Origin: Candidatus Woesearchaeota archaeon
GTDB taxonomy: Archaea; Nanobdellota; Nanobdellia; Woesearchaeales; JACPBO01
DNA length: 64,000 nt
Reading direction: 5' to 3'
Assembly (NCBI GenBank): GCA_030651135.1
Contig: JAUSCS010000009.1
Location: forward strand, 22,844-86,843
The position numbers and the translations under genes are program-made. The notes under the pieces were generated by a model, which made no database searches, had not been told where the DNA came from, and was given only the letters and a program-made list of their open reading frames with translations. Within the stretch, counting starts at the first letter, position 1. Every line of letters begins with the position of its first letter. This document shows positions 1,222 to 55,214 of this stretch, piece by piece.

Positions 1222-1926
1222 ATGTTTACTGCTGCTATGAAGGGGGCGATATCTTTAATACTGCTTTTTTTATTATTCGTAAATATAACATACGCAGCAA
1301 CAATATTCGGCGATATTTATGACCTTTCTTTAAACAGAATAGACAATGTAATAGTTGAGATCAACACCATACCGAATCAGCAGTATGTCTCGAAGAACGG
1401 AACTTATTCTTTTGATGCACCAGCGGGAGATTATATAATAAAGGCAAATTATTATCTTAATAATGTTCTCGAATCTTCTGCTGTTGAAAAGATCTCTGTA
1501 AAGGCAGAAGGAAGGTTCAGGCTTGATCTGATCCTGTTCCCCTCATTTGAAGATGAAAATCAGTTGCTGAACGAGAGCATTACAGTTCCAGCAACTTTTG
1601 AAAGTCCTAATTATTTAGTTTATTTTTTGATTATCATTTTAGTCTTGATCGTCTTATTGGCTGTTTTTTATTATTATAAAAAAATAAAGAAACCAGTAAT
1701 AAAAGGAACTGAAAAAACAATCTCGAAAGAAGAAAGCAAACCTTCTGATCTGGACCAGATAATAAAGCTCATAAAAAAAGAAGGCGGAAGGGCAACGCAA
1801 AAGGATTTAAGAAGACAGATTCCTTTATCAGAGGCAAAAATAAGTTTGATGATTGCAGAGCTTGAAGACAAAGGCGTGGTTAAAAAGATAAAGAAGGGAA
1901 GGGGGAATATAATAATCTTAAAATGA
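1222..1926 (+). CDS. Membrane-anchored winged-helix protein (signal peptide, extracytoplasmic domain, one TM, C-terminal wHTH)
   Basis: N-terminal hydrophobic leader, a central TM (YLVYFLIIILVLIVLLAVFYYY), and a C-terminal segment KDLRRQIPLSEAKISLMIAELEDKGVVKK typical of MarR/TrmB-like wHTH. Confidence 0.45.
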   Translation: MFTAAMKGAISLILLFLLFVNITYAATIFGDIYDLSLNRIDNVIVEINTIPNQQYVSKNGTYSFDAPAGDYIIKANYYLNNVLESSAVEKISVKAEGRFRLDLILFPSFEDENQLLNESITVPATFESPNYLVYFLIIILVLIVLLAVFYYYKKIKKPVIKGTEKTISKEESKPSDLDQIIKLIKKEGGRATQKDLRRQIPLSEAKISLMIAELEDKGVVKKIKKGRGNIIILK

Positions 1927-2747
1927 AAATATTGATTACTGGCGCAAGCAGCTATGTCGGGGCGCGTTTATATTCTGATCTATCTAAAAAATTCGATGTT
2001 GTTGGAACATACAATACAAATAAAATTTTTCCAGAGCTTGTTCAATTAGACATAACTGACCATGATGCGGTTATGCAGATTGTTAAAAAATTCAAGCCCG
2101 CTGCAATTATACATGCTGCAGCCAATCCAAGCGCCAGATGGTGTGAATCAAATCCAGAGCTCGCAGTAAAAATTAACGAAGATGGCACAAAAAATATTGT
2201 TGATGCTGCAAATGCAATAAAAGCAAAAGTTATTTACATTTCCTCTGTTATGATTGCGATTGTTCCTCAAAATGCGTATGGAAGAACAAAACTCGCCGGG
2301 GAAGAATATGTTAAAAATACGAAATATGGGTTCATAATATTAAGGCCTTCTTTGATCATCGGACTTAGCCCAAATACAACTAATGACAGGCCATTTAACA
2401 GAATACTTCAAAATATTGATGAGAAAACACCTGCAATTTATGATACATCGTGGAAATTTCAGCCTACATGGCTCAGCCATATTTCAGAGGTTATACAAAT
2501 ATCGCTTGAAAAAAGTATAACAAATGAAATCATTCCAATAGCTGTTCCTGAATTGAAATCCAGATTTGACATTGCAAAGGATATATTGTCTTGCTTTAAT
2601 ATTTCAGTAACGCCAAAAAATGAAAATGATAAAACCCCTGTTATAACTGTTACGCAAGATAAATTAAAACAATTTGGGCTTCCATGTTATAATTATTCAG
2701 AGATAATAATCAAAATTGTGAATGAAATAAAAGGGAGAGAAAAATGA
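1923..2747 (+). CDS. NAD(P)-dependent epimerase/reductase, SDR fold (RmlD-like)
   Basis: N-terminal Rossmann motif MKILITGASSYVGARL. 274 aa. The start overlaps the upstream stop (ATGA). Confidence 0.55.
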   Translation: MKILITGASSYVGARLYSDLSKKFDVVGTYNTNKIFPELVQLDITDHDAVMQIVKKFKPAAIIHAAANPSARWCESNPELAVKINEDGTKNIVDAANAIKAKVIYISSVMIAIVPQNAYGRTKLAGEEYVKNTKYGFIILRPSLIIGLSPNTTNDRPFNRILQNIDEKTPAIYDTSWKFQPTWLSHISEVIQISLEKSITNEIIPIAVPELKSRFDIAKDILSCFNISVTPKNENDKTPVITVTQDKLKQFGLPCYNYSEIIIKIVNEIKGREK

Positions 2748-3166
2748 AGCACAAACAGGCAAATGATATTTTCTATGTTATAAGGCTGGAGAAAGGAGAA
2801 AAGATAATTGAAGGCATTATTGATTTTTGCAGTAAAAATAAAATCAGGAACGGCCTGTTTTTTGGATTGGGAGCGATAAACAGAGTTGAGCTTATGCATT
2901 ATGTTGTTGATACAAAGACGTATTCTTCCAAAATTATAGAAGAGCCCTTGGAGATTGCGAATATGACTGGCAATGTGATGATCATGGACAGCAAGCCAAT
3001 ACTTCATACGCACATTACTGTTTCTGACAAGGATATGAGGCCTTATGCCGGGCATCTGAAAGAAGCAACAGTTGCAGCAACATGCGAAGTATTCCTTGTA
3101 AAGCTGGATTCTGAAATAAACAGGAAATACAGCGAAGAGATTGGCCTGAATCTTCTTGATATGTAA
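2744..3166 (+). CDS. PPC/DUF296-domain protein
   Basis: 140 aa. The YVIRLEKGEKIIEGIIDFC...GLGAINRVEL pattern resembles the PCC (DUF296) domain. Translationally coupled to the upstream gene. Confidence 0.4.
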   Translation: MKHKQANDIFYVIRLEKGEKIIEGIIDFCSKNKIRNGLFFGLGAINRVELMHYVVDTKTYSSKIIEEPLEIANMTGNVMIMDSKPILHTHITVSDKDMRPYAGHLKEATVAATCEVFLVKLDSEINRKYSEEIGLNLLDM

Positions 3167-4325
3167 GATGAAAACATTGTTAGTTATAGGCATTGATCCC
3201 GGAACAACATCTGCTTATGCAGTGTTTGATATAAACAAACAGCTTATTAAAAAAGATTATTCCAAAGAGCACAATATCAGCAGAATAATCTCTGAAGTGA
3301 TGAAGCTTGGAAAGCCTTTATTAGTTGGCTCTGACAAGAATCCACCTTCCAGCTTTGTTGTCGAGTTTGCAGCCAAAACAGGAGCTGAGTTGATATATCC
3401 TGATAAAGACCTGCTTGTTGAAGAAAAAAAGGAATTTGCGAAAGAACTGGTTTATAGCAATCCTCACGAATTAGACGCCATCTCTTCTGCATTGTTTGTT
3501 TTCAAAAGGCTGTCTGCATTGTTTACAAAGCTCGATATTTTTGTCAAGGAAAATAAAATAGAAGACATTGAAAACGAGCTGAAGGAAAAAGTTATCAGAG
3601 AGAAGATAAGCATGAAAACTGCTCTGGATGAAATAAAGAAGAAAAGTGTTGTGACGATCTATGAAAAAAGAGAAATCATAATAAAAAGGCAGCCTGAAGA
3701 TTATGAGAAATTAAGAAAAGAGCTTGAATTGGTCAGGGATTTCAATAAGAAATTAAACCAAAGAATAGAGATTTTGCAGGCAAAGAATAAAAAGCTGTTT
3801 GAAAGGATCAGCTCAAAACCAGAAGTGAGGCCCGAAGGAAAATATAGGGAAATGCTCGGGTTTAAGGAAAACAAGATTTTTTCATTGTCGAAGAACAATA
3901 AAAAACAGGAGGAAGAATTAAGCAGATTAAAAGAGGATCTGAAGAACATTCACAGCTTTATTTCAAAGATTGGCGATGAGAATTTTCTTGCTAAAAAACT
4001 GGATAACTTCACAAATCAGGAATTTGAATCAAAGAATAAGATATTGAACATTGGCAAAGAAGACGTGCTGTTTGTTGATGATCCAAATACCTACAGCGAA
4101 AGAATAATTGAATCTTTGAAAGACAAAGTAAGGTTTGTGATATTCAAAAAAGAGCCATCAAAGAAATTAAGGGAAAACTTCATTTTTATTAATTCAAAAG
4201 AAATTCAGATCGAGGAAAACGAGTATTTTGCGATTGCGAATAAAAAGGATTTTGAAAGTCAGAAAGAGAAGGCAGATATACTGAGCAAGGTTGTGCAAGA
4301 ATATAGACGAGAAAAAGCAGCTTAA
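3156..4325 (+). CDS. RNase H-fold (YqgF/RuvC-like, DUF460-type) protein with long coiled-coil C-terminus
   Basis: N-terminal VIGIDPGTTSAYAVFD resembles the YqgF/RuvC catalytic start. The Lys/Glu-rich remainder is predicted coiled coil. Confidence 0.4.
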   Translation: MICKMKTLLVIGIDPGTTSAYAVFDINKQLIKKDYSKEHNISRIISEVMKLGKPLLVGSDKNPPSSFVVEFAAKTGAELIYPDKDLLVEEKKEFAKELVYSNPHELDAISSALFVFKRLSALFTKLDIFVKENKIEDIENELKEKVIREKISMKTALDEIKKKSVVTIYEKREIIIKRQPEDYEKLRKELELVRDFNKKLNQRIEILQAKNKKLFERISSKPEVRPEGKYREMLGFKENKIFSLSKNNKKQEEELSRLKEDLKNIHSFISKIGDENFLAKKLDNFTNQEFESKNKILNIGKEDVLFVDDPNTYSERIIESLKDKVRFVIFKKEPSKKLRENFIFINSKEIQIEENEYFAIANKKDFESQKEKADILSKVVQEYRREKAA

Positions 4326-4327
4326 AG

Positions 4328-4753
4328 TTAAAGCTTGCCAAAATCCAGCATCATCTTCTTTCCGGTTTTAATGTTCTTTGCGCTTATCTTCTTTCCAGTC
4401 CCCATGATCTCCACTTTCTCGCCTTTGTAAGTTATGATATCACCTTTCTTGATCGCTGCCGGTGTGAATTTCACACTAACGCGGTGGACTTCCTTGCTTG
4501 TCAGCCTGTCCATTGTGAAAAGCCTGGTGGTGATCAAAAGCTCGCCCCTGAAATGCTTTTTTAATCTCTTGCCTAAGCTTATCAGAAACCCATTGTTGCT
4601 CAGATAAAGATCAACCCCTTTTTCAACATCAACAGCTTTCGCTACAAATATGCGTTCGCTTTTTTCCCTGTTGATCTGAGCTTTGACAAAGCTTATTATT
4701 TCTTCAGTCGGATTTCTCAGCTGAAGCACACCTTCATAATAATTTTCATTCAT
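4328..4753 (-). CDS. Hypothetical protein (KOW-like C-terminus)
   Basis: 141-aa ORF with no Cys and a basic C-terminal half. I do not recognise a family. Confidence 0.35.
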   Translation of the reverse strand: MNENYYEGVLQLRNPTEEIISFVKAQINREKSERIFVAKAVDVEKGVDLYLSNNGFLISLGKRLKKHFRGELLITTRLFTMDRLTSKEVHRVSVKFTPAAIKKGDIITYKGEKVEIMGTGKKISAKNIKTGKKMMLDFGKL

Positions 4754-4756
4754 AAT

Positions 4757-5443
4757 TTGTGTTATAAAACCGATATATTTATAATATTTTTCATTATTTT
4801 AAAGCAAATGGGAAAATTAACTAAATTTCTGAAAAAAACATGGCACTTCATATGGCATGAGGACAGCTTACTGAGCTGGATCGTCAACATAATCCTTGCT
4901 TTTGTTCTGATTAAATTCATCGTCTATCCTGGCTTGGGATTGGTCCTGGGCACATCCCATCCGATAGTCGCTGTTGTTTCATCAAGCATGGAGCATCATC
5001 AGCAATTCGATGAATGGTGGGCTTCTCGTGCATTGTGCGAGTCAGGGGCATGCAATCAGGGCCAGTTTTATGCTAAGTACAATGTCACAAAAGAAGATTT
5101 CCAGAAATATCCGTTTGCAAAGGGCTTTAACATAGGCGATATAATGTTTTTAAGGAAAGCTGATCCCAAAAGCGTAAAAATGGGAGATATAATTGTTTTC
5201 AGAAGCCCATATAGGTCTGATCCGATAATTCATCGAGTCATCAAGAAATGGACAGACGGCAATATTTATTATTTCAGGACAAAAGGCGACAACAATGCAG
5301 GCCATGTGCAGGATGAGCTGCAGATAACTGAAGCGCAGCTTGTTGGAAAAACTCTTTTCAGGGTTCCTTATCTCGGCTATGTGAAAATCGGCTTTGTGAA
5401 GTTTTTATGCGTGTTTGGAAAATTTAACTTTTGCGTGAGGTGA
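4757..5443 (+). CDS. Signal peptidase I, archaeal/eukaryal Sec11-type
   Basis: N-terminal TM followed by the VVSSSMEHH serine motif (SSMEP-like), with the conserved His region downstream. Confidence 0.6.
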   Translation: MCYKTDIFIIFFIILKQMGKLTKFLKKTWHFIWHEDSLLSWIVNIILAFVLIKFIVYPGLGLVLGTSHPIVAVVSSSMEHHQQFDEWWASRALCESGACNQGQFYAKYNVTKEDFQKYPFAKGFNIGDIMFLRKADPKSVKMGDIIVFRSPYRSDPIIHRVIKKWTDGNIYYFRTKGDNNAGHVQDELQITEAQLVGKTLFRVPYLGYVKIGFVKFLCVFGKFNFCVR

Positions 5444-5760
5444 ATAATATGTTCTGCCCAAAATGCGGCTCAATAATGCTGCCTAAAAAAGGCATTTGGC
5501 AGTGCTCGTGCGGCCATAAGGATAAAGGAAAGGAAAACTTAAAGCTGAAAGATGAATCAAAAAAAGAAGCCAAGAAAGACATAATGTTCGGGGTTGCAGA
5601 TGCAGGTAATGAGATGCTTCCGTTGACAGATGCAGAATGTGACAAATGCAGGCATGGCAAGGCATATTTCTGGACAATGCAGACAAGGGCAGGTGATGAA
5701 GCTGAAACAAGATTCTACAAATGCGAAAAATGCAAGCATGTATGGAGAGAATATAAGTAA
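5431..5760 (+). CDS. tfs: Transcription factor S / RNA polymerase subunit M (TFIIS-type zinc ribbon)
   Basis: 109 aa. N-terminal CPKCGS...CSCG ribbon and a C-terminal CDKC...TRAGDEAETRFYKCEKC TFIIS-type ribbon carrying the acidic DE hairpin. Confidence 0.75.
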   Translation: MREVNNMFCPKCGSIMLPKKGIWQCSCGHKDKGKENLKLKDESKKEAKKDIMFGVADAGNEMLPLTDAECDKCRHGKAYFWTMQTRAGDEAETRFYKCEKCKHVWREYK

Positions 5761-5765
5761 TTGAA

Positions 5766-6014
5766 ATGAGTGAATTTCCGGATTTCTTAAAAGACAGGGA
5801 AAAAATAAAGATCATTGCAAAGCCAAATTCTTCTAAAACAGAGATCATCGGCTATGATCAGGAAAAATCCGCATTAAGGCTGAATGTGAAAGCCCCTCCT
5901 GAAGAGAACAAGGCGAATATAGAGATCATAAGGTTTTTTAAAAAGCTGCTGAAGAAAGATGTAAAAATAATCTATGGATTGAAAGATAAAGAAAAGATCA
6001 TAAGAATAGAATAA
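5766..6014 (+). CDS. DUF167/YggU-family protein
   Basis: 82 aa with the IKIIAKPNSSKTEI...LNVKAPPEENKANIEIIRFF...IIYGLKDKEK pattern characteristic of UPF0235. Confidence 0.5.
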   Translation: MSEFPDFLKDREKIKIIAKPNSSKTEIIGYDQEKSALRLNVKAPPEENKANIEIIRFFKKLLKKDVKIIYGLKDKEKIIRIE

Positions 6015-11028: not shown

Positions 11029-11445
11029 CTACAATCCAATCCACTTGTCAACATCCTTTGCTATCTTTTTCAGATCTTCATAAGCCCTTTTTGCATCATT
11101 CTCGATCTCATCAATAAGAACTTCCAGCTTGTCAACCCTCAGCAGGTATTTCCTTCCTTCGTGCGTGATAATTCCTGCTTCCATGAGCTTGTTCATATGA
11201 TGCACAACAGTTCCCCTGGTCAGGTCAAGCTTATAAGCGACTTCATCGCTTGACAGCGGCTTCTTTGTTTTGGCGCTTTTCACAAACTCAACAAAGATTC
11301 GGAAGCAGCTGCTGTCCTTGTCGCGGAGATTGAACAGGCCAAGAGAGCTGCCCAGCCATTGCAGTTCACGATTAATGTTCTTTTCAACAGGCTTGTTGGA
11401 GCTTATTATGGTGAATTTAAATGTTGGCGCCATATCTGAGAGCAA
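11029..11445 (-). CDS. Winged-helix transcription regulator, divergent from grpE (candidate heat-shock regulator)
   Basis: LDLTRGTVVHHMNKLMEAGIITHEGRKYL is an ArsR/wHTH-like recognition helix. It shares its promoter region with grpE, which carries a palindromic operator. Confidence 0.5.
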   Translation of the reverse strand: MLSDMAPTFKFTIISSNKPVEKNINRELQWLGSSLGLFNLRDKDSSCFRIFVEFVKSAKTKKPLSSDEVAYKLDLTRGTVVHHMNKLMEAGIITHEGRKYLLRVDKLEVLIDEIENDAKRAYEDLKKIAKDVDKWIGL

Positions 11446-11514
11446 GACGTCTTTATATATAAAACTTTCTCTTTTAAACCGAAAACTATTTAAATAAGTT
11501 CATCTTACCACGTT

Positions 11515-26017: not shown

Positions 26018-26490
26018 CTAAACTGTTACATTAGCAATCTTCATCTTCACAAACTTATTTATCTCCAGATAAAGCGCTCCGGCTCCTGACATGAGGATCA
26101 GCAGCAGGAATTCGTAAATGCTCAATGCGGTTGTATCAAATACATTCTGCAATGCCGGAATATAGACAACTGATATGACTGCCAGCAAAGAAACCAGCAC
26201 TGACAAAATGAGCCATTTGTTCTTGAAAAATCCGACTCTTGATAATGGATAATTCACAGACCTGCACGAAAATGCCTGGTAAAGCTCGAACATGGCAATC
26301 ACAATGAGCCTTCCATCTGCGGGTATTTTTGCGCCTGTTTCCAGAATTATTATATCGCCAGGTACAAGATTGATGGCATCTATTGCTTCGACTTCATTGT
26401 TTCTCAGAACACCTGCCTTTAAGGCTGAGCTTTTGAATTGATTCAGTAAAATCTCAAAAGGGCTGGTTCTTTTGCCTTCTTTAAGCTAGT
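26018..26490 (-). pseudogene. Decayed P-type cation ATPase: actuator-domain fragment fused to the last TM segments, with no start codon
   Basis: Read upstream of the 94-aa ORF in the same frame, the sequence gives ...VLRNNEVEAIDAINLVPGDIIILETGAKIPADGRLIVIAMFELYQAFSCRS.... This is an A-domain motif (PGDIv.l..GdkiPADgRl) joined directly to the C-terminal TM region of the same pump. The phosphorylation and nucleotide-binding domains are missing. Confidence 0.5.
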
Positions 26491-27211: not shown

Positions 27212-28333
27212 TTACAACCCGCGACCCTTCATAAAGTATTTCGCATCACCGCCATCAACAAGCCTTGCTATCTTCTTTGTTTCGGTATCCACAATAAAGA
27301 TATGCCCGATAGGGAGATAAACAAGTATGTGCCTGTCGTCAGGAAGCCATGTTGGGTCACTATAACCACTATATCTATCACCTCTCCATTGGATGATAGT
27401 CTCTGTATAATTTGGATTGGCATACATCTTTTTCATCTTAGCACTCAAATCATGTTCTATGGCAGCGGGAGCATAAGAGCTCATTTTAATACTGCCTTCG
27501 TTTATGAAAATTACTTTTTTGTAATCATTGGAGGATTCATAACCATCCCCCATTCCAGATGTAAAATCTCGTTGATATAAAGATAAAGAAGCATTGTTAA
27601 TACAGGATTCGAAAGGGTCGTCTACGTATCCTTCTTCCCATGGCTTTTTCTGAGCATAACTACAAATTAAAACAGCCTTTTCAAATGAAAAGTCATATTC
27701 GAAAAATAAATCACGCCCATCGTTCTCTGAAAATATCCGTGAACCATAAACAAGAACTTTTTTGCCCTCTTTGTAAAAATAAGCATTTACTCCAACAGCT
27801 GCACTAAATCTTGAAATATCCTCTAATTCTTTTAATTCGGTAACTTGATTAGTATTAAGGTCTACGATATAAAAATATGGTTGGTCTAGTCCATTTATTT
27901 GACCATCAATGGAATGAAGTAATTTTGGATTATAATTACTATCTGTTTCAGTAGAAATAACAAACAACCAGTCTCCATCAGGTGAGAAACGTGATAAGCG
28001 TATCTTCTCACCTTTAGTTTGGAAAACAGAGGATGTTTCAGTACCATTCTCATTAGTTATATATATCTGTTTGCCTAAATGAATAGCAATCTGGTGTTTA
28101 GCAGGGTCAAGCATAAAATGGTCTACTAAACCATCAAATATTTTTTTGCTATTTGTTCGGTCGGCCTGTATTGAGTAGAGTCCATCTTGAGTAGCATAAA
28201 ATATTGTTACATTAGGAGCCCATGAAATTCTTTCTTCAAATTCTATAGGAAACTGTGAACTATTGCAGCCAGATAATAAAAGAACGTTTACTAATAAAAA
28301 CAGAGATAGTGTAATCCTTAATTTCAACTGCAT
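27212..28333 (-). CDS. Secreted lipoprotein with beta-propeller (PD40/TolB-like) repeats
   Basis: Signal peptide plus the lipobox LLSGCNSS, then repeated hydrophobic/aromatic-Gly-Asp blades. Confidence 0.45.
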   Translation of the reverse strand: MQLKLRITLSLFLLVNVLLLSGCNSSQFPIEFEERISWAPNVTIFYATQDGLYSIQADRTNSKKIFDGLVDHFMLDPAKHQIAIHLGKQIYITNENGTETSSVFQTKGEKIRLSRFSPDGDWLFVISTETDSNYNPKLLHSIDGQINGLDQPYFYIVDLNTNQVTELKELEDISRFSAAVGVNAYFYKEGKKVLVYGSRIFSENDGRDLFFEYDFSFEKAVLICSYAQKKPWEEGYVDDPFESCINNASLSLYQRDFTSGMGDGYESSNDYKKVIFINEGSIKMSSYAPAAIEHDLSAKMKKMYANPNYTETIIQWRGDRYSGYSDPTWLPDDRHILVYLPIGHIFIVDTETKKIARLVDGGDAKYFMKGRGL

Positions 28334-28556: not shown

Positions 28557-28925
28557 CTATATCTTTGGAATATATAAATTTTTTGCATATCTGACCTTTA
28601 CTTCCTCAAGATGGTGCATTGGCTTGCAGTCTTCAGCTGTTTTTTTGCTGAAAAAAGGATAATCCCTGCATGCCTTCGGCAGTATGTTATATATTTTGCA
28701 TGACGTTGTGCCGTCGGTATTTTTTACCAGGAAGACGCAGTCTCCGTTGATCAGCCTCATATAGCCTTCCTGATCCTTCCTGAACGGATGGTTCATGAGA
28801 AAATCAGCATGGCCTGCAGCCTCTATCTTGGTTATATCTGATTTATTCAGCCTGAAAAGAAGCCTGCAGCACTGTCCGCAGTTCTCGCATCTGAAGCTTT
28901 TCTGTGTAATCCTCTTTTTCGTCAT
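28557..28925 (-). CDS. YkgJ-family CxxCxxCC domain protein
   Basis: FRCENCGQCCRL matches the CxxCxxCC signature. Paralog of 12265-12774. Confidence 0.5.
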   Translation of the reverse strand: MTKKRITQKSFRCENCGQCCRLLFRLNKSDITKIEAAGHADFLMNHPFRKDQEGYMRLINGDCVFLVKNTDGTTSCKIYNILPKACRDYPFFSKKTAEDCKPMHHLEEVKVRYAKNLYIPKI

Positions 28926-29509
28926 TCGATCTGCCTTATTATTCTTAAAAAATTATTGTCATTTATGTTATTTTTATAAATCTTGCAGCTTTCAATCATT
29001 TCTTTCCTGTTTATTTTTATACTTTTCTCTTTTAACAGTTCTGAAACAAAATCTGAGACCAGAAAAACCGAGAACTGCGTGACATTGGCTGGCCTTTCGA
29101 TATAATGAGCGCGCTCGAAGTCGACCAGAACAGGTTTATTATGCTTGGTTATTATAATGTGCTTGTGCGGATGCGACATCTCTTCCTTGTTTATTTTCAG
29201 CTTGTCTAATTGATATAATTGATCATAGAGTGTTTTTATCATTTTCAATATTATATTTTTATTGTTCTCTTTTTCAATAAAATCCAGAAAATAAATGCCG
29301 TCAATAAACTCCATTCCCAGCTTTCCATTTTTAAAAAATAAAGCCTTTGGCCCGATATTCTTTTTGTTCAGTATTTTCAAGAATCTGAATTCATTCTCGA
29401 TCCTGTTCTCAGCCCTGCTTTCAGGATTTTTTATTTTGATGATTATTTTCTTGTTCTTGTATTTGGAAAAATAAATCAATCCGCGCTTGCCTTTTTTGTA
29501 GATCTGCAT
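28922..29509 (-). CDS. Small atypical protein kinase (Bud32/RIO/Kdo-kinase-like)
   Basis: An N-terminal Gly-rich/Lys region, a catalytic-loop-like HPHKHIIITKHN, and a DFG-equivalent LVDFERA. Confidence 0.4.
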   Translation of the reverse strand: MQIYKKGKRGLIYFSKYKNKKIIIKIKNPESRAENRIENEFRFLKILNKKNIGPKALFFKNGKLGMEFIDGIYFLDFIEKENNKNIILKMIKTLYDQLYQLDKLKINKEEMSHPHKHIIITKHNKPVLVDFERAHYIERPANVTQFSVFLVSDFVSELLKEKSIKINRKEMIESCKIYKNNINDNNFLRIIRQIE

Positions 29510-29530
29510 TTTGTTATCACTTCAATTTTC

Positions 29531-30097
29531 CTATAATTCTTCCAGAATGTCTTTCTTTTTATATTCTACGTTGCTTCTTTTTAATATCTCATCAAATTCC
29601 ATTGAATGTTCAAGAGGAATTTTTACAACGCCTGCCGAAATCCTTATCCCATTAAGCATCTTAAGAATGCCTTCTTTTTTTCTGCCTGCAAGGATATAGT
29701 TAAATTTTACTTTTTGAGAATGGTTTAATCCTTTTAAATTATACCAAAATAAGGAATACGACCTAAATCCGAGTGTTTCACAAAATTTTCTATTTTTAAA
29801 AATGCTTATGCCCTCAAAAAATACACCCGTTCTTGCCATGAATTCATTTGAAAATAAATCTTTCAGCAATATCTGTTTTATATCAATGTCTTCTTCAAGC
29901 TTTTCTTTTATTTTATTTTTTATTGCCTGAATGGCATTGAGCCTTTCCTCCAAACTTCCTGCCAGAAAGATAACAAGTATATCTATATCTCTGGCTTTAT
30001 ATTTTCCTTTAACCAGCGATCCGTATACAACAATATCAAATATTTCCTTTCCTGCTTTTTCAGATTTCAAGCATTTTTCTAATTTTTTCAATATCAT
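29531..30097 (-). CDS. Minimal nucleotidyltransferase (MNT)
   Basis: IFDIVVYGSLVKGKYKARDIDILVIF matches the GS...DxD motif. Confidence 0.6.
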   Translation of the reverse strand: MILKKLEKCLKSEKAGKEIFDIVVYGSLVKGKYKARDIDILVIFLAGSLEERLNAIQAIKNKIKEKLEEDIDIKQILLKDLFSNEFMARTGVFFEGISIFKNRKFCETLGFRSYSLFWYNLKGLNHSQKVKFNYILAGRKKEGILKMLNGIRISAGVVKIPLEHSMEFDEILKRSNVEYKKKDILEEL

Positions 30098-30398
30098 TTT
30101 TTATCAATTCCGCGGATTCCTTGTCCATCTTTTTAGTGTAACTGTCTTGGTAAAAAGGGAAATCCCTGTCCACTATTTTGTAGATTTCTCTGAATTTCTC
30201 CTCAAGAACCCTGAATCTGTCAGAGTGGGAAGTCGGGACACGGCCTTCTTTTCTGAGGATGTATATATCGCATAAAGCAACTAGTGCTTTAAAGAAAAGA
30301 GTCGTAGCTGTATTATGCTTGCCTTGTTTAAATGCGCTTACACCGAGCTCGTAATACTCATAAAAATTTTCTTTTAATATTCCTTCCTTTTCATTCAT
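30060..30398 (-). CDS. HEPN-domain protein (Rx4-6H motif)
   Basis: RVPTSHSDRF carries R-x4-H. All-helical, 112 aa. It overlaps the MNT start. Confidence 0.5.
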   Translation of the reverse strand: MNEKEGILKENFYEYYELGVSAFKQGKHNTATTLFFKALVALCDIYILRKEGRVPTSHSDRFRVLEEKFREIYKIVDRDFPFYQDSYTKKMDKESAELIKNDIEKIRKMLEI

Positions 30399-30443
30399 GT
30401 ATGATACAACTTAATATGAGTATTTAAGCTTTTTGGTTGTAAT

Positions 30444-30509
30444 ATACAACAATTCATACAGTACAACAAAATAACGTTATTTTGTAGTTTATGTTGTACA
30501 ATACAACAA
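30444..30509. promoter_or_regulatory. TACAACAA direct repeats plus palindrome TGTTGTA-CAA-TACAACA upstream of the HEPN-MNT pair
   Basis: The motif occurs at 30444-30452 and 30462-30470 and as an inverted pair at 30493-30509, within the 118-bp gap between the TrmB gene end and the HEPN start. Confidence 0.45.
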
Positions 30510-30516
30510 AGCTCAA

Positions 30517-31254
30517 TCATTTCCTCGCCTGTTTCCACATTAGCTTAAATTGATTCAGGTAGCTCATTGCATTGTCCTTGTTCTTAATAACAACAGCAAT
30601 CGGCGGCTTTGCAGTCCAGATAAATAAGATTACTGTGTCTTTGTAGATCATTGTGTCTGTAATGCTTGAATATTCCTTTGGATGAAATCTTGCTTCGCCA
30701 ATATAGTCTTTTAATAATTGAGAATTTTTTTCTTTTATTTCTTCATTAAAGATGCAATACGATTTTATTCCTTGCTTTCTCTTTCTTTTCTGCCACAGCT
30801 CCCAGTATGGGCCCATTATATCTTTAAACAATCCAGAAACTCCAAAATCATAATATTCTCCTTTATTGCCAAGCTCTTCCAGTATTTTGTCCAATACAGA
30901 GCGAATTCCTTTAATGCCATAATAAACAGTAACTTCCTGCTTTTCCTTGCTTGCTTCTAATCTTGATTTAAGAATCGGCATTATTTCTTGTAATTTTTCC
31001 TGCCTTTCCTTTAAAACATCCATCAATCGTTCAGGGCTTGCAGGCTCAAAATGCTGCTTTTTGCCTTTAATAACAGATGAAACAAGGCCTTTTTCCTTTA
31101 ATCGCTGCAGGATCTGATAAGTTGTTCCCCTATGCAGGCCTGTTTTCTTGATTACTGCCCCTGCTAAAGTTGATCCTGTTTCTATTAATGCAAGATAGAC
31201 TTTTGATTCTGCTTCTGACAAGCCTAGCTCTTCTAAAACATCAAGTTCCGGCAT
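30517..31254 (-). CDS. TrmB-family transcription regulator
   Basis: N-terminal LGLSEAESKVYLALIETGSTLAGAVIKKTGLHRGTTYQILQRLKEKGLV HTH plus a TrmB-like C-terminal domain. Confidence 0.6.
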   Translation of the reverse strand: MPELDVLEELGLSEAESKVYLALIETGSTLAGAVIKKTGLHRGTTYQILQRLKEKGLVSSVIKGKKQHFEPASPERLMDVLKERQEKLQEIMPILKSRLEASKEKQEVTVYYGIKGIRSVLDKILEELGNKGEYYDFGVSGLFKDIMGPYWELWQKRKRKQGIKSYCIFNEEIKEKNSQLLKDYIGEARFHPKEYSSITDTMIYKDTVILFIWTAKPPIAVVIKNKDNAMSYLNQFKLMWKQARK

Positions 31255-31255
31255 T

Positions 31256-31885
31256 TTATACCATCAACTGCCTTATTATGTTGATAAATTCCTCTGCAGT
31301 ATTGATCGCTCGTATTGCATTGTATTCCTCTACACTAAGTGTTACATTATAGGTAAAGGTTTCTCTGTCATTTCTCACCAGGTCATACTGTTTAGCATAC
31401 TCGTAGGCTTTTTCTTGAAAGTCTTCAACACTGATTTTTTGAATTTGAGCAGTAGTTTCGAAAGTCTTTAAATATTCTTCATAAAGATGTTTTGCTAACT
31501 TTTTAGTTTTGACTAAATAATACAGTATAATATACTCCGTCGTTATATGAACTCCCCTTAAGCCTTCCCTTAGTTTTGTTTTGTATTTTAATGCCAAAAA
31601 TGCATGAACAATATAGTACATGGAATAATAAGCAGCAGCTACAGCTTCTGCATAATCTTTATATCCTTCACCGACCTTGAGGATCTTTTTATCAGAGTCC
31701 TCTTTAGAAGCATTATAGATGAGTTTTGCTGTTTCCAATCTGTTCCTGCTTTTTTCCCGATAGAAATCAGCAATTTGGTGCTTTTCTGTTTCAGAGAGCT
31801 TTTTCAGATCATTCGATTGGGTAAGCTCTAAAATTCGTTTTTCTGCAATTATGATCTTCTTTTCGATTAAATCCTGCATTTTCAT
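31256..31885 (-). CDS. HEPN-like protein, partner of the upstream HTH-MNT
   Basis: Helical 209-aa protein. Paralogous to 50746-51303 (shared AAAYYSMYYIVHAFLAL / LAYYSMYHCLLAALF segment). Confidence 0.4.
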   Translation of the reverse strand: MKMQDLIEKKIIIAEKRILELTQSNDLKKLSETEKHQIADFYREKSRNRLETAKLIYNASKEDSDKKILKVGEGYKDYAEAVAAAYYSMYYIVHAFLALKYKTKLREGLRGVHITTEYIILYYLVKTKKLAKHLYEEYLKTFETTAQIQKISVEDFQEKAYEYAKQYDLVRNDRETFTYNVTLSVEEYNAIRAINTAEEFINIIRQLMV

Positions 31886-32490
31886 CTTTTATACGCCCCA
31901 TTCAGTAATTGATAATACCCTTCTACACCATATAAAATAACATGGTATTTTCTCGCTTCATTTCCTATATTTAATGCACCGGGATTAAGAATCATTTCCC
32001 TAAAATCATTTGTATCGATAAAATTCGGCGCTTTTTTTACTTTTGTGTACGCTTTGTGCATTGCATCTTCTATTTCACGTATATCTTTTTTATCCCGAAC
32101 AATAATTAATAAGTCAAGGTCGGATTTTGCTGTTTGAAGTCCTTTAGCATAAGAGCCAAAAACAAGCAAAATAAAAAAAAGATTCTTGGCAGATATAAAA
32201 ATATCTTCAAGCATCACTTGTATCCACGGGTATTTTTGCAGTAAGTCCTTTTTTCTTTTTAGTTCAATATCAACAAAAACAGGGGTTGGCGCGAATTCAT
32301 TTAATGTGACAATCTGTGCAGGGGGAACAGGCTCTTTTTTAATGATGTTTTTCTTCTCCAGATCAGCAATATTATTGTAAACCAAGGTATATGACTTGCC
32401 TAGTTTTTTAGCAATGCCTCTAATGGTAGGCTTCTCTTCGGGATGGCTTAATAAAAAAACTAAAATTTGTTCTTGGGTCTTGGTTAGCAT
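31882..32490 (-). CDS. HTH-fused minimal nucleotidyltransferase
   Basis: An N-terminal wHTH (TIRGIAKKLGKSYTLVYNNIADLEKKNII) then FGSYAKGLQTAKSDLDLLIIV. Paralog of 51278-51835. Confidence 0.6.
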   Translation of the reverse strand: MLTKTQEQILVFLLSHPEEKPTIRGIAKKLGKSYTLVYNNIADLEKKNIIKKEPVPPAQIVTLNEFAPTPVFVDIELKRKKDLLQKYPWIQVMLEDIFISAKNLFFILLVFGSYAKGLQTAKSDLDLLIIVRDKKDIREIEDAMHKAYTKVKKAPNFIDTNDFREMILNPGALNIGNEARKYHVILYGVEGYYQLLNGAYKR

Positions 32491-32701
32491 TTTTTATTAT
32501 ACTAATGGTAGTATCAACTGATATTAATTATAAGTTATATAAAAATGTTTTGTTTTTGACTCTGACAATACAGGCAAGTAAAAGCAAAGCGTCTATTTAA
32601 ATCTTTCTATTCTGTCGTCTTGATTAAGACTACAATAATTTAAATACCTGCCACACTATTACTACTATGAGGTAAGTAAATATAAGATGATGTGAGGAAA
32701 A

Positions 32702-33061
32702 ATGAAAACAAACCGAGATACGGTATTGATGAGCGGACTGCACGACCTGGTCGCAGAGGGGGTCTTGCATTTCAGTGAATATGATGTGGATTGCATAAAG
32801 AGTAACTTGGACAGCCACACCACATACTACATAGACTCGACCAAGAATCTGGGCACTCACATAGCCGACATGGTAAAAAGCGACAAGATAGGTATAGTGG
32901 CCAGAAACTGGACCATAATGGACCGCGTGGATACCGCACTGACAAAGAGAGATTATCGATGTGATGACTCTTCGTGGGGCAACCATGGCAGTTATGGGAT
33001 GTACAGTTACCACAAGGATACCAGACTGAATAAAACCCATCTGAGAATAACAAAAGACTGA
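32702..33061 (+). CDS. Hypothetical protein, first gene of a compositionally atypical cassette
   Basis: 119 aa. Codon third positions are conspicuously G/C-rich (gac ctg gtc gca gag ggg gtc ...), unlike the surrounding genome. No family recognised. Confidence 0.4.
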   Translation: MKTNRDTVLMSGLHDLVAEGVLHFSEYDVDCIKSNLDSHTTYYIDSTKNLGTHIADMVKSDKIGIVARNWTIMDRVDTALTKRDYRCDDSSWGNHGSYGMYSYHKDTRLNKTHLRITKD

Positions 33062-33102
33062 GATTAACTAAAAAAAATAATAAATCAAGGAGGTAAAGGA
33101 AA

Positions 33103-33333
33103 ATGGAAAGACAATACCAAGAAATTTACGGTGGAACAGTTGATGTGTCAAGAGAGGAAGAAACTCTCAAATATGGATTAACTGAAACAGGAACACTTAG
33201 TGAGAGAGGTTTAAGAAGCACAGTAGAACAGATAAGAAATGAATTTTTAGATAGTGCTTTGAGAACACAAAAAATTATTGGTAAACCTATCTCACTCGAA
33301 TATACAATATATGAAATTTCGGAGAAAAAATAA
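33103..33333 (+). CDS. Hypothetical small protein, cassette gene 2
   Basis: 76 aa, preceded by a strong AAGGAGGT Shine-Dalgarno. Confidence 0.4.
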   Translation: MERQYQEIYGGTVDVSREEETLKYGLTETGTLSERGLRSTVEQIRNEFLDSALRTQKIIGKPISLEYTIYEISEKK

Positions 33334-33349
33334 ATAAAATCAGAGGTAA

Positions 33350-33667
33350 ATGAAAATGGTATCGATAGATGTGTATAAAGCAAAATATTCAGGCAAAAAA
33401 GAAGATTGGCAAAGTACTTATTACGCCGATTCAGATGAAGCATCTTGCTTTACTAGTTATCTAAAAGGGGATACCTTGAGGGAATTAGCAGAAAATCTAC
33501 CGAAAATTCCAGTAGACTATACTCGTGGAGTGTTTGAAATAAACTACTCACCGCCTTTTCATACAAAAGTGTCTTCTGGTGGTATAATCAAGTTAAAGCA
33601 CCTTAATTTATTAGAAAGAAGAATTTTCGAGTATTATTTAAGTAAAAATTTGCGAAAAGAAGGTTGA
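33350..33667 (+). CDS. Hypothetical protein, cassette gene 3
   Basis: 105 aa, preceded by a GAGGT Shine-Dalgarno, 16 nt after gene 2. Confidence 0.4.
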   Translation: MKMVSIDVYKAKYSGKKEDWQSTYYADSDEASCFTSYLKGDTLRELAENLPKIPVDYTRGVFEINYSPPFHTKVSSGGIIKLKHLNLLERRIFEYYLSKNLRKEG

Positions 33668-33685
33668 AGTTATTGCAAATCCATT

Positions 33686-34222
33686 TTATTTTTGGATCAA
33701 ATAAACCATCAAATCCTCAAAAAACACGTGCTTTTTGCACAATAATCTGTATTTTAACTTGTTTTTCTTTATCAAACTATTAATCATTCTCGGATTTGTC
33801 AGCGATGAAAAAACCATCAGAATAATGCCTTCTTTTTTAAGATAGTTATTTGCTTTGCTCAGAAACCTTTCAATAACCTCATATCCTTTTTTGCCGCCTT
33901 CTATGGTTATATCCTTGACTTTCAGATCAGAAGGCAGATAAGGCGGATTGAAGATAATGGTGTCAAATTTTATGTTTTTAACATTGGAGAACAAGTTGCT
34001 TTGCCTGAATGTTATTTTTTTGTTTTTATTTTTATTTTTTAAATGATCAATAACATCTTTTTGCACATCTGATGCAATAACTTTCTTTACGTCTTTCTTT
34101 TTTGCTGCTTCTATTGCCTGTATCCCTGAGCCTGTTCCGAGATCAAGCACAACTCCTCTTGCATATTTCCTGACTTGCTCCGCTAATAAATAAGAATCAT
34201 CACTAGGCTCATAGATCGTCAT
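33686..34222 (-). CDS. HemK/Mtq2-like N5-glutamine (protein) methyltransferase
   Basis: SAM motif VLDLGTGSGIQAIEAA and substrate motif IIFNPPY. Confidence 0.7.
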   Translation of the reverse strand: MTIYEPSDDSYLLAEQVRKYARGVVLDLGTGSGIQAIEAAKKKDVKKVIASDVQKDVIDHLKNKNKNKKITFRQSNLFSNVKNIKFDTIIFNPPYLPSDLKVKDITIEGGKKGYEVIERFLSKANNYLKKEGIILMVFSSLTNPRMINSLIKKNKLKYRLLCKKHVFFEDLMVYLIQK

Positions 34223-34358
34223 TTTCCAGGATTAAGCCCTTCACACATTGTAATGAGATTTCCGCAGTTGTCGCATTCATAATTAGTATAGCGGGAATTG
34301 CCGCTGTCCATGACACCTTTTCTGACCATCTTCCCGACTTTGCATTTTATGCACAGAA
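34219..34358 (-). CDS. Small 4-Cys zinc-ribbon protein, translationally coupled to the methyltransferase (Trm112-like candidate)
   Basis: My translation: MNNILCIKCKVGKMVRKGVMDSGNSRYTNYECDNCGNLITMCEGLNPGK. Its stop TGA overlaps the methyltransferase ATG (ATGA). Confidence 0.35.
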
Positions 34359-34364
34359 TATTGT

Positions 34365-34838
34365 TCATTTGAATTCCTCATCTATTTTTTTAACATACTC
34401 TTTTACCCTTGCTAATATTGAGCTTAATAAAAAGCTTTCTATTTTCTCGTTGAATACATCAAGGATCATTGAATGCTCTGTAATTCTGTACATGTTATCT
34501 ATTTTTTCTATCAGGAACAAATCCCTCAATCTTTTTAGCTGCCTTCTTATGTTTGATCCTGCTATTCCGAGCATTGCAAGCTTATGGCTTTTTCTGAGCT
34601 CTTTAACCTGCTCTTCAACATCAACACTGCTTAATTCTTTCTTGTTTTTCTTAGCATCCAATAAAACATAGAGAACATCAACAACAACATCTCGGGAATC
34701 ACCTGGCTGCAGCAAGCCAAGGCTCAGGCATAATTTTTTAACAAGATCCCTTCTTTCAAGGTTTTGCGGCTTTTCATATCTCCTTAAAGTTATTTCAGCC
34801 AGCGGCGTGTCTTTCGAGACTTTTTGATCCATGGTCAT
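34365..34838 (-). CDS. Hypothetical helical (winged-helix-like) protein, first gene of the MTase operon
   Basis: 157 aa. LRRYEKPQNLERRDLVKKLCLSLGLLQPGDSRDVVVDVLYVLL. Family not recognised. Confidence 0.35.
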   Translation of the reverse strand: MTMDQKVSKDTPLAEITLRRYEKPQNLERRDLVKKLCLSLGLLQPGDSRDVVVDVLYVLLDAKKNKKELSSVDVEEQVKELRKSHKLAMLGIAGSNIRRQLKRLRDLFLIEKIDNMYRITEHSMILDVFNEKIESFLLSSILARVKEYVKKIDEEFK

Positions 34839-50745: not shown

Positions 50746-51303
50746 TCAAAAATGCAAACATTTTTGACATTTGAGCATGCTCAGAATTTTCCACATATGA
50801 AAAAGGTTGGCTTTCTGCCACCAGTCAAAGACTGGATGGAAAATTCTGACATTTCCATGATACTCTTTTATCTTCTCTTCATTTAGATTAGCCATAAGAT
50901 TGCTCATCTCTGTAATGAATTCTTCAGCAATCTTGATAGAATTAGATGCTTCTTTCTGGTTAACTGCAAAATCAACATAGTACTGCTTGTCTACCCTCTC
51001 AGATTTTGCATTTGAAATTTTGGCATTGTCAATTCCAAATGCTTTTTTGAGAAGTATTATTGAGGCAGCATGATTTTCGCATTTTATGCCTATCCTAAAC
51101 AATGCCGCAAGAAGGCAATGGTACATGGAATAATATGCCAATGCAACTGCGTCTTTAAGGTTGCCTATCTTCAATAGAGCCTTTGCTGAAGATAAAGATT
51201 CATTTGACCTTAGGATGTACGCTTCTTTAATATCCTCACTTGGCTCAACTTCCTGCAGTTTTTCCTGCTTATGCAGCTTAATCAAAAAATTTATTTTTGT
51301 CAT
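50746..51303 (-). CDS. HEPN-like protein (paralog of 31256-31885)
   Basis: Shared LAYYSMYHCLLAALF segment. Overlaps the upstream HTH-MNT gene. Confidence 0.4.
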   Translation of the reverse strand: MTKINFLIKLHKQEKLQEVEPSEDIKEAYILRSNESLSSAKALLKIGNLKDAVALAYYSMYHCLLAALFRIGIKCENHAASIILLKKAFGIDNAKISNAKSERVDKQYYVDFAVNQKEASNSIKIAEEFITEMSNLMANLNEEKIKEYHGNVRIFHPVFDWWQKANLFHMWKILSMLKCQKCLHF

Positions 51304-51835
51304 AGTAAATCTCAGTGCCTTTTATTATCACATGATTTTTTTCTATTTCTTTAATAAGCAGGCTATCCTTATTATAGCTGCCTATTTTTACGCTTATTTT
51401 TGAATCTATCTGCTCCACTTCTTCTTTTAGCTTAGCATCTTTGGTGTCTATGTAGATATCAATGTCGCTGCCTTTAGCTGCAATGCCTTTTGCATATGAG
51501 CCAAATAGGATTGCCAAGCTTATTTTTTGATTTCTCCTGATTAGCTCTATGATCCTCCTTAAATGAGGGTACTTCTTTAATATCTCTAATAGCTTATGCG
51601 GTTCAACAAGATAAGCATATTGCTTTGCCTCCAGTGTTTTTTTCAGAAAAAATACCTTATTTCTTCCTTCTTGCTTAAAATCAACAATATTATCTCCGTA
51701 CAATTCATGGACTTTTCTTGCAATGGTGGTTTGATTGGTTTTTAACAGCCTAGCAAGCCCTCTGATGTGATTGTCGCTCTTGAAAAGCGATTCGATGATT
51801 TTAATATTGTAATTATTTTGTGACATATGTAACAA
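51278..51835 (-). CDS. HTH-fused minimal nucleotidyltransferase (paralog of 31882-32490)
   Basis: N-terminal HTH plus LAILFGSYAKGIAAKGSDIDIYIDT. Confidence 0.6.
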   Translation of the reverse strand: MLHMSQNNYNIKIIESLFKSDNHIRGLARLLKTNQTTIARKVHELYGDNIVDFKQEGRNKVFFLKKTLEAKQYAYLVEPHKLLEILKKYPHLRRIIELIRRNQKISLAILFGSYAKGIAAKGSDIDIYIDTKDAKLKEEVEQIDSKISVKIGSYNKDSLLIKEIEKNHVIIKGTEIYYDKNKFFD

Positions 51836-55061: not shown

Positions 55062-55214
55062 TGGGCCCAGCCGGACTTGAACCGACGACATTCACCAGTT
55101 TGAACGTTTTACGCTAGTCAAGGCAGCGTCACTCGCTTCGCTCGTTCCGAGCCTCGACTCACTTCGCTACGCTCGTTCGTCAAGGTGACATCATAGCCAC
55201 TAGATCATGAGCCC
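55062..55214 (-). tRNA. tRNA-Val (anticodon GAC) with 80-nt intron after position 37
   Basis: Folded by hand. Acceptor GGGCUCA/UGGGCCC pairs 7/7 (one G-U), discriminator A. D-loop AGUGG. Anticodon stem UCACC/GGUGA, loop UUGACG|U. T-arm GUCGG-UUCAAGU-CCGGC. Exons 55178-55214 and 55062-55097. The intron 55098-55177 is GC-rich, and AACG/CGUU pairing at its ends fits a bulge-helix-bulge. Confidence 0.7.

Follow-up and report, generated by a model that had tools for sequence, protein, structure and literature searches.

The DNA analysed here, referred to as the window, is a 64,000-nucleotide stretch of a 161-kb contig from a metagenome-assembled genome (MAG) of Candidatus Woesearchaeota. Three short genes, designated g1, g2, and g3, lie in tandem on its plus strand between a minus-strand HTH-MNT gene (31882–32490) on the left and a minus-strand MTS/Mtq2-like methyltransferase gene (33686–34222) on the right. 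This arrangement—three plus-strand genes enclosed by minus-strand HEPN/HTH-MNT and Mtq2-like blocks—was described in an initial annotation of the DNA, and is borne out by both the open reading frames (ORFs) and the gene callers. The first gene, g1 (32702–33061, plus strand), encodes a soluble protein of 119 aa; g2 (33103–33333, plus strand) encodes a product of 76 aa, and g3 (33356–33667, plus strand) one of 103 aa, which an alternative ATG at 33350 would extend to 105 aa. Lengths of 119, 76, and 105 aa had been given initially, and these hold for the ORFs as placed; for g3, however, 103 aa is the likely length. The NCBI and Logan gene callers predict the same three genes and start g3 at 33356, and the corresponding NCBI loci (Q7J54_04890, 04895, and 04900) are all annotated as 'hypothetical protein'.

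The intergenic gaps are short, at 41 nt between g1 and g2 and 16 (or 22) nt between g2 and g3. The HTH-MNT gene is divergent from g1, the spacer between them being 211 nt, and the DNA specific to the cassette extends from approximately 32551 to 33681. All three proteins are hydrophilic and possess no transmembrane segment. The g1 protein (pI 6.6) has a high content of Asp, Thr, and His, whilst the g2 protein is acidic (pI 4.97) and the g3 protein basic (pI 8.6). No paralogues of g1–g3 are present in the window.

Each gene of the cassette is preceded by a Shine-Dalgarno-like motif located 4–8 nt upstream of its start. At g1, this is GAGG (32694–32697), with the ATG 4 nt downstream; at g2, it is GGAGGT (33089–33094), with the ATG 8 nt downstream. 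At g3, the motif GAGGT (33343–33347) lies 8 nt from the second ATG (33356) and just 2 nt from the first, and thus 33356 is the likely start. Strong GGAGGT-type motifs had been noted for the second and third genes; g2 does carry the full hexamer, g3 has the shorter GAGGT, and g1 proves to have a motif of its own. The spacing of 16–40 nt reported for these sites needs correction: those figures match the distances between the genes (41 nt and 16 or 22 nt), and the motifs of g2 and g3 lie 8 nt from the ATG. Shine-Dalgarno-like motifs precede about one third of the window genes, chiefly the internal genes of operons, and the spacing seen in the cassette is that found at internal genes of this genome's purine operon. 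The g1–g2 and g2–g3 spacers moreover share a common 48-nt ribosome-binding context, which is 71% identical between the two and ends in GAAAATGG.

Homology to the region upstream of the MNT module ends at around 32550, and the region upstream of g1 that is specific to the cassette spans 32551–32701 (plus strand). A candidate archaeal TATA box, TTTAAATA, occurs here at 32639–32646 on the plus strand; it matches the consensus and may serve as the promoter. A second candidate is found at 32596–32603 on the same strand. Transcription from the box at 32639–32646 would begin approximately 30 nt upstream of g1. A T4-A-T5 tract at 33684–33693 (plus strand), 17 nt past the g3 stop, is likely to be an archaeal oligo-T terminator; it runs into the 3′ end of the methyltransferase gene, which converges on g3. 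Neither the g1–g2 nor the g2–g3 spacer contains an oligo-T tract. As a TATA box lies upstream of g1, the spacers are free of oligo-T, and the first T4-A-T5 tract follows g3, the three genes may be expressed as a single leadered tricistronic mRNA running from the TATA box at 32639–32646 to the tract after g3, with each cistron presumably translated from its own Shine-Dalgarno site.

To judge from sequence searches, the three proteins are strict orphans. A word-indexed search of 5.8 billion clusters returned only self-matches for g1, g2, and g3, and an exhaustive phmmer search of 1.84 billion representatives found no homologue of g1 (g2 and g3 being covered by the word index); altogether, 15 billion predicted proteins hold no relative of the cassette. 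The Logan locus L001 carries g1 and g2. No relative of g1, g2, or g3 was recovered from scans of IMG/VR, nor of g1 from scans of metagenomes and GTDB genomes, and the phage and plasmid collections INPHARED and PLSDB gave no match to g1–g3 by blastn or tblastn. The 22 loci fetched for comparison contain no relative detectable by tblastn. Profile searches of Pfam, PHROGs, PADLOC, and NCBIfam produced no match beyond noise at E values up to 1, in agreement with the initial impression that the products bear no recognisable motif. A sequence search of the PDB gave a best E value of at least 0.076, which is not a usable match. Single-sequence AlphaFold2 models were uninformative, with pLDDT of 34 for g1 and 37 for g3, and Foldseek searches of the PDB with these models returned noise (best E of 3.2 for g1 and 0.69 for g3; TM-scores of 0.32 or less).

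The absence of any homologue in these collections, together with pLDDT values below 40, favours the reading that the ORFs are non-functional: chance or decaying frames within junk left by an old integration and over-called by gene finders. Properties of the DNA point the same way. The g1 segment is T-poor (19.7% T), as a result of which ORFs of at least 119 aa arise in 3.5% of shuffles of the segment, and half of its six frames stay open, for 119, 136, and 93 aa; the coding score of g1 is close to zero, and three-base periodicity at g3 is marginal (300 of 5,000 shuffles). Several observations nevertheless argue against such a reading. ORFs beginning with ATG on the same strand cover 909 of 1,071 nt (85%), a value never matched in 2,000 piecewise dinucleotide shuffles, in which coverage averaged 120 nt and reached 845 nt at most. 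A correctly spaced Shine-Dalgarno motif precedes all three genes. When frames are scored with a codon model trained on 35 long window genes, the annotated frame is clearly the best of six in every case, at +0.045 bits/codon for g1, +0.34 for g2, and +0.11 for g3, with all other frames at −0.33 or below. Three-base periodicity (base-by-phase, 5,000 shuffles) is strong at g1, where only 2 of 5,000 shuffles equal it, and significant at g2 (77 of 5,000), and is absent from the adjacent intergenic spacer used as a control (2,417 of 5,000). Non-functional ORFs are thus considered rather unlikely, though a possibility to be taken seriously, and g1–g3 most likely are true genes that encode small soluble proteins.

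The 136-aa frame opposite g1 (32630–33040, minus strand) was considered as a gene and rejected, as it has a codon score of −0.33 and lacks a Shine-Dalgarno motif; moreover, it was called by none of the gene callers and has no entry in the protein collection. The frame is a shadow ORF that owes its existence to the low T content.

The base composition of the cassette is far from uniform. The GC content of g1 is 0.458 overall and 0.57 at third codon positions (GC3), a figure well above the roughly 48% initially quoted for its third positions. Window genes of 150 aa or more show a GC content of 0.373 ± 0.032 and a GC3 of 0.36 ± 0.06, and the GC3 of g1 surpasses that of all 1,052 in-frame 120-codon segments taken from window genes (maximum 0.55). 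In overall GC, g1 falls within the top 0.6% of 360-nt windows. Its synonymous codon score of −0.175 bits/codon is below that of all 366 host segments (mean 0.206 ± 0.078; lowest value −0.042). ATA is used for all seven Ile codons and CTG for six of nine Leu codons. This composition is not that of highly expressed host genes: DnaK, GrpE, and DnaJ, the only window genes presumed to be highly expressed, have GC3 values of 0.37–0.41, as opposed to 0.57 in g1.

In contrast, g2 and g3 are AT-rich, with GC3 of 0.18 and 0.25, respectively, and their synonymous codon scores (+0.28 and +0.08) are host-like. The initial description of the whole cassette as compositionally foreign therefore holds for g1, on both GC3 and codon score, and fails for g2 and g3; the cassette is compositionally heterogeneous. 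As only g1 is atypical, the three genes may not have arrived together, and the contrast in composition between g1 and g2/g3 speaks against one module that evolved as a whole. On this evidence, g1 would be the latest acquisition, from a donor of higher GC content, whilst g2 and g3 could either be older residents or derive from an AT-rich donor.

The cassette is the outermost piece, at one end, of an accessory island of approximately 4.17 kb (29510–33685), whose breakpoints were set by blastn against the Logan contig L002 from another sample. This island is mosaic in structure, with four units: an NTase gene (188 aa) and its partner of 112 aa, a gene for a TrmB regulator, HEPN209 with HTH-MNT202, and g1–g3. 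Its core flanks are the methyltransferase gene, whose product has an MTS domain (Pfam MTS, E = 3.6e-18) and an NPPY motif and shares 84% amino-acid identity with the L002 protein, and a small kinase-like gene on the minus strand (28922–29509). In L002, these flanks are present at 85%–91% (about 86%) nucleotide identity, and the whole 4.17-kb block is missing: L002 4056–5268 corresponds to window 34881–33682, and L002 5262–6390 to window 29513–28382. Gene order in L002 is x155, zn48, methyltransferase, kinase-like, and CxxCxxCC, with the methyltransferase stop overlapping the kinase-like start (ATGA; the overlapping pair occupies 4730–5850). In L004 and L005, from more distantly related GTDB representative Woesearchaeota, the methyltransferase and kinase-like genes are fused, forming one continuous ORF of 413 aa in L004 (1713–2954) and of 390 aa in L005 (3638–4810).

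Overlap of the flanking genes in L002 and their fusion in L004 and L005 imply that adjacency is the ancestral state and that the window carries an insertion. The island was inserted precisely where the methyltransferase gene meets the kinase-like gene, the sole position that spares both. A 6-bp direct repeat, AAAATG, marks the two edges, with one copy at the methyltransferase-proximal edge (33682–33687, minus strand) and the other at 29507–29512, with the start codon (ATG) of the kinase-like gene inside it. This repeat could be either a target-site duplication or a microhomology, being too short and too common here to decide between them, since AAAATG is a common start context in this genome. 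No integrase, transposase, or replication gene lies in or beside the island, whose genes match NTase, HEPN-like, or TrmB proteins or nothing at all; nor were a tRNA gene, clear att sites, or a convincing terminal inverted repeat found at its edges. An integron-like cassette was considered and dropped, given the lack of an integrase, the mixed gene orientations, and the want of a convincing edge repeat.

The surroundings of the island were also compared with L002. The region 27212–28333 of the window represents a 1.2-kb insertion bearing a 373-aa orphan ORF with no Pfam or NCBIfam match, and a P-type cation ATPase gene has lost about 1.9 kb (at approximately 26302–26305), so that a 91-aa C-terminal remnant is left. 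The neighbourhood of the island is an insertion/deletion hotspot. As regards the core genes themselves, the methyltransferase–kinase-like fusion suggests that the two proteins are functionally connected, and the kinase-like protein of approximately 195 aa gives weak matches of the Bud32 and choline-kinase type. A 49-aa gene encoding a four-cysteine zinc ribbon (34219–34368, minus strand) is translationally coupled upstream of the methyltransferase gene and is kept in L002; its product could be a Trm112-like partner, though no match to the Trm112 profile was seen.

On balance, and with moderate confidence, the cassette is regarded as a real, acquired, strain-specific accessory operon, the acquisition of which was probably recent. 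A horizontally acquired module had been suggested from the outset; its location within a variable island, as judged from L002, L004, and L005, supports acquisition, and the atypical composition of g1 alone does not support a single uniform module. Orthologues in core regions of related genomes would have pointed elsewhere, and none was found: relatives of g1–g3 are absent from all 12 Woesearchaeota and Nanoarchaeota loci fetched via the methyltransferase (tblastn, E up to 1). Probably, g1–g3 originated from a mobile element, that is, from the virus and plasmid gene pool.

Native, fast-evolving genes, or genes born de novo within the lineage, would dispense with horizontal acquisition. DPANN lineages are known for fast evolution and for many short lineage-specific ORFs (PMC6393860), and the host-like synonymous codon usage of g2 and g3 (+0.28 and +0.08; host mean 0.21) would suit such an origin. 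Against it stand the absence of the block from the 86%-identical relative, the adjacency or fusion of the flanks in three relatives, codon usage in g1 that lies beyond the host range, and the demonstrable mobility of the adjoining island modules, so that native or de novo origin is regarded as improbable. A further alternative concerns the assembly, in that the g1 segment could come from another organism and have been mis-joined into the MAG contig. The source is metagenome-assembled and the jump in composition is limited to about 360 nt, as might be expected of a chimera; however, an independent Logan assembly (run SRR13727527, a 36-kb contig) agrees with 100% identity for 20.5 kb spanning the site, the GC-rich stretch is exactly one ORF with its own Shine-Dalgarno motif and stop amid AT-rich spacers, and so small an insert (360 nt) would make an implausible chimera, which together render this explanation very remote.

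GC-rich spots in AT-rich archaeal genomes often represent structured non-coding RNA. The g1 segment (360 nt at 46% GC within a genome of 37% GC) was rejected as such an RNA, an alternative that retains next to no probability, because it gives no Rfam match at the gathering threshold and only noise at E values up to 10, folds with minimum-free-energy z-scores of +0.07 (plus strand) and −1.35 (minus strand), and shows strong codon periodicity with a GC excess limited to third codon positions. Elsewhere in the window, the GC-rich stretch 11084–11452 was likewise rejected as an RNA, being an ordinary 138-aa HTH gene, and a tRNA gene interrupted by an intron of 83 nt was recognised at 55062–55214 (minus strand) by the Rfam tRNA model (42 bits), having been missed by ARAGORN.

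The immediate neighbour of the cassette is a self-contained module on the minus strand (31256–32545), comprising the HTH-MNT (31882–32490) and HEPN (31256–31885) genes, and the cassette lies outside it. Homologues of HTH-MNT with 60%–92% identity occur in five other contigs (L003, L019–L023), with the HEPN partner beside them wherever the contig reaches that far, and the neighbourhoods of these homologues are unrelated to one another. A check for synteny between the cassette and HEPN/MNT genes, as proposed initially, yielded none: the five homologous MNT(-HEPN) loci have other neighbours, and tblastn at E up to 1 detected no g1–g3 near them. Judging from these comparisons, the MNT/HEPN module is mobile independently of the cassette, and the cassette is a module distinct from the toxin-antitoxin pair that it adjoins.

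Alignment of the DNA upstream of MNT reveals a conserved segment of approximately 55 nt with a TATA box and a palindrome, TAGTATCAATTGATACTA, beyond which similarity ends at around 32550. In the window, the palindrome TAGTATCAATTGATACTA occupies 32509–32526 (minus strand) with two mismatches, and the TATA box conserved upstream of MNT occupies 32534–32544 (minus strand). The combination of TATA box and palindrome is found upstream of HTH-MNT/HEPN modules in six loci (window 32491–32545; L019–L023), and the palindrome is probably an autoregulatory operator for the winged-helix domain of the MNT protein. In the metagenome contig L020, approximately 2.4 kb downstream of the HEPN homologue (1343–3767) contain no ORF longer than 139 aa. 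The toxin-antitoxin-rich setting noted initially is upheld, the island contributing two NTase/HEPN-like pairs and positions 50746–51826 a third. This third pair (minus strand) is MNT/HEPN-like, its MNT-like protein sharing 27% identity with the island MNT over 172 aa, and the ORF adjoining the MNT-like gene has a weak HEPN match.

A role for the cassette in toxin/immunity or defence, as first suggested, amounts to guilt by association. Given its island setting, the most likely functional class would be inter-genomic conflict, with g1–g3 acting as conflict or addiction cargo derived from a mobile element. More specifically, acidic g2 and basic g3 might constitute an addiction or toxin-antitoxin-like pair to which g1 was added as separate cargo; this is put forward only with low confidence, and an acidic upstream product followed by a basic downstream one is a pattern common by chance. 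More doubtful still is the suggestion that g1–g3, or g2–g3, belong to an unseen family of conflict proteins (toxin-antitoxin, abortive-infection, or anti-defence) of DPANN archaea or their viruses, represented by one genome and with g1 drawn from an unsampled donor of higher GC content. With regard to known anti-phage defence systems, no PADLOC family was found for g1, g2, or g3 at E values up to 1.

If real and functional, g1–g3 exemplify an unsampled pool of accessory genes circulating among DPANN archaea. The locus also shows how accessory modules stack at one permissive site, here the 4-bp overlap of two coupled core genes, and it provides a clean test case for whether the singleton orphan genes of islands are expressed and under selection. 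The finding alone opens no long-standing question.

Amongst known systems, type II toxin-antitoxin modules bear a formal likeness to g2–g3, which are two small co-oriented genes separated by a gap of 16–22 nt, sharing one design of ribosome-binding site and possibly co-transcribed. A small acidic upstream product, a larger basic downstream product, and a location in a mobile island beside toxin-antitoxin modules are further points in common. In contrast, g2 has no RHH, HTH, or AbrB domain, neither g2 nor g3 is similar to any toxin or antitoxin family, and the cassette includes a third gene upstream, g1, with different codon usage. Beyond gene arrangement, no defining feature of a toxin-antitoxin or defence family is present, and the cassette is accordingly filed under none of them. 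HEPN/MNT (HepT/MntA) pairs are type VII toxin-antitoxin modules (PMC7641770, PMC3710099); the pair at this locus is the immediate neighbour of the cassette, and its promoter/operator region ends at about 32550, which leaves the cassette outside.

A second resemblance is to the 'dark matter' and accessory genomic islands of archaea described by Makarova, Wolf and Koonin (PMC6393860), which likewise comprise blocks of short unannotated genes in DPANN genomes, vary among close relatives, and are set amid toxin-antitoxin-like and regulator genes. Most genes in those islands belong at least to small families, whereas g1–g3 are absolute singletons, and the present island possesses no recognisable integrase or element backbone. 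The orphan clusters of archaeal viruses and plasmids also share features with the cassette, namely tightly packed short ORFs, strong ribosome-binding sites, a lack of homologues, and non-host composition; the cassette differs from them in having no IMG/VR, INPHARED, PLSDB, or PHROGs match and no capsid, replication, or integrase gene nearby. Singleton short ORFs are very common in the variable islands of uncultivated archaea. Within this range of systems, the cassette is strain-specific orphan cargo in an archaeal accessory island, a very common kind of feature.
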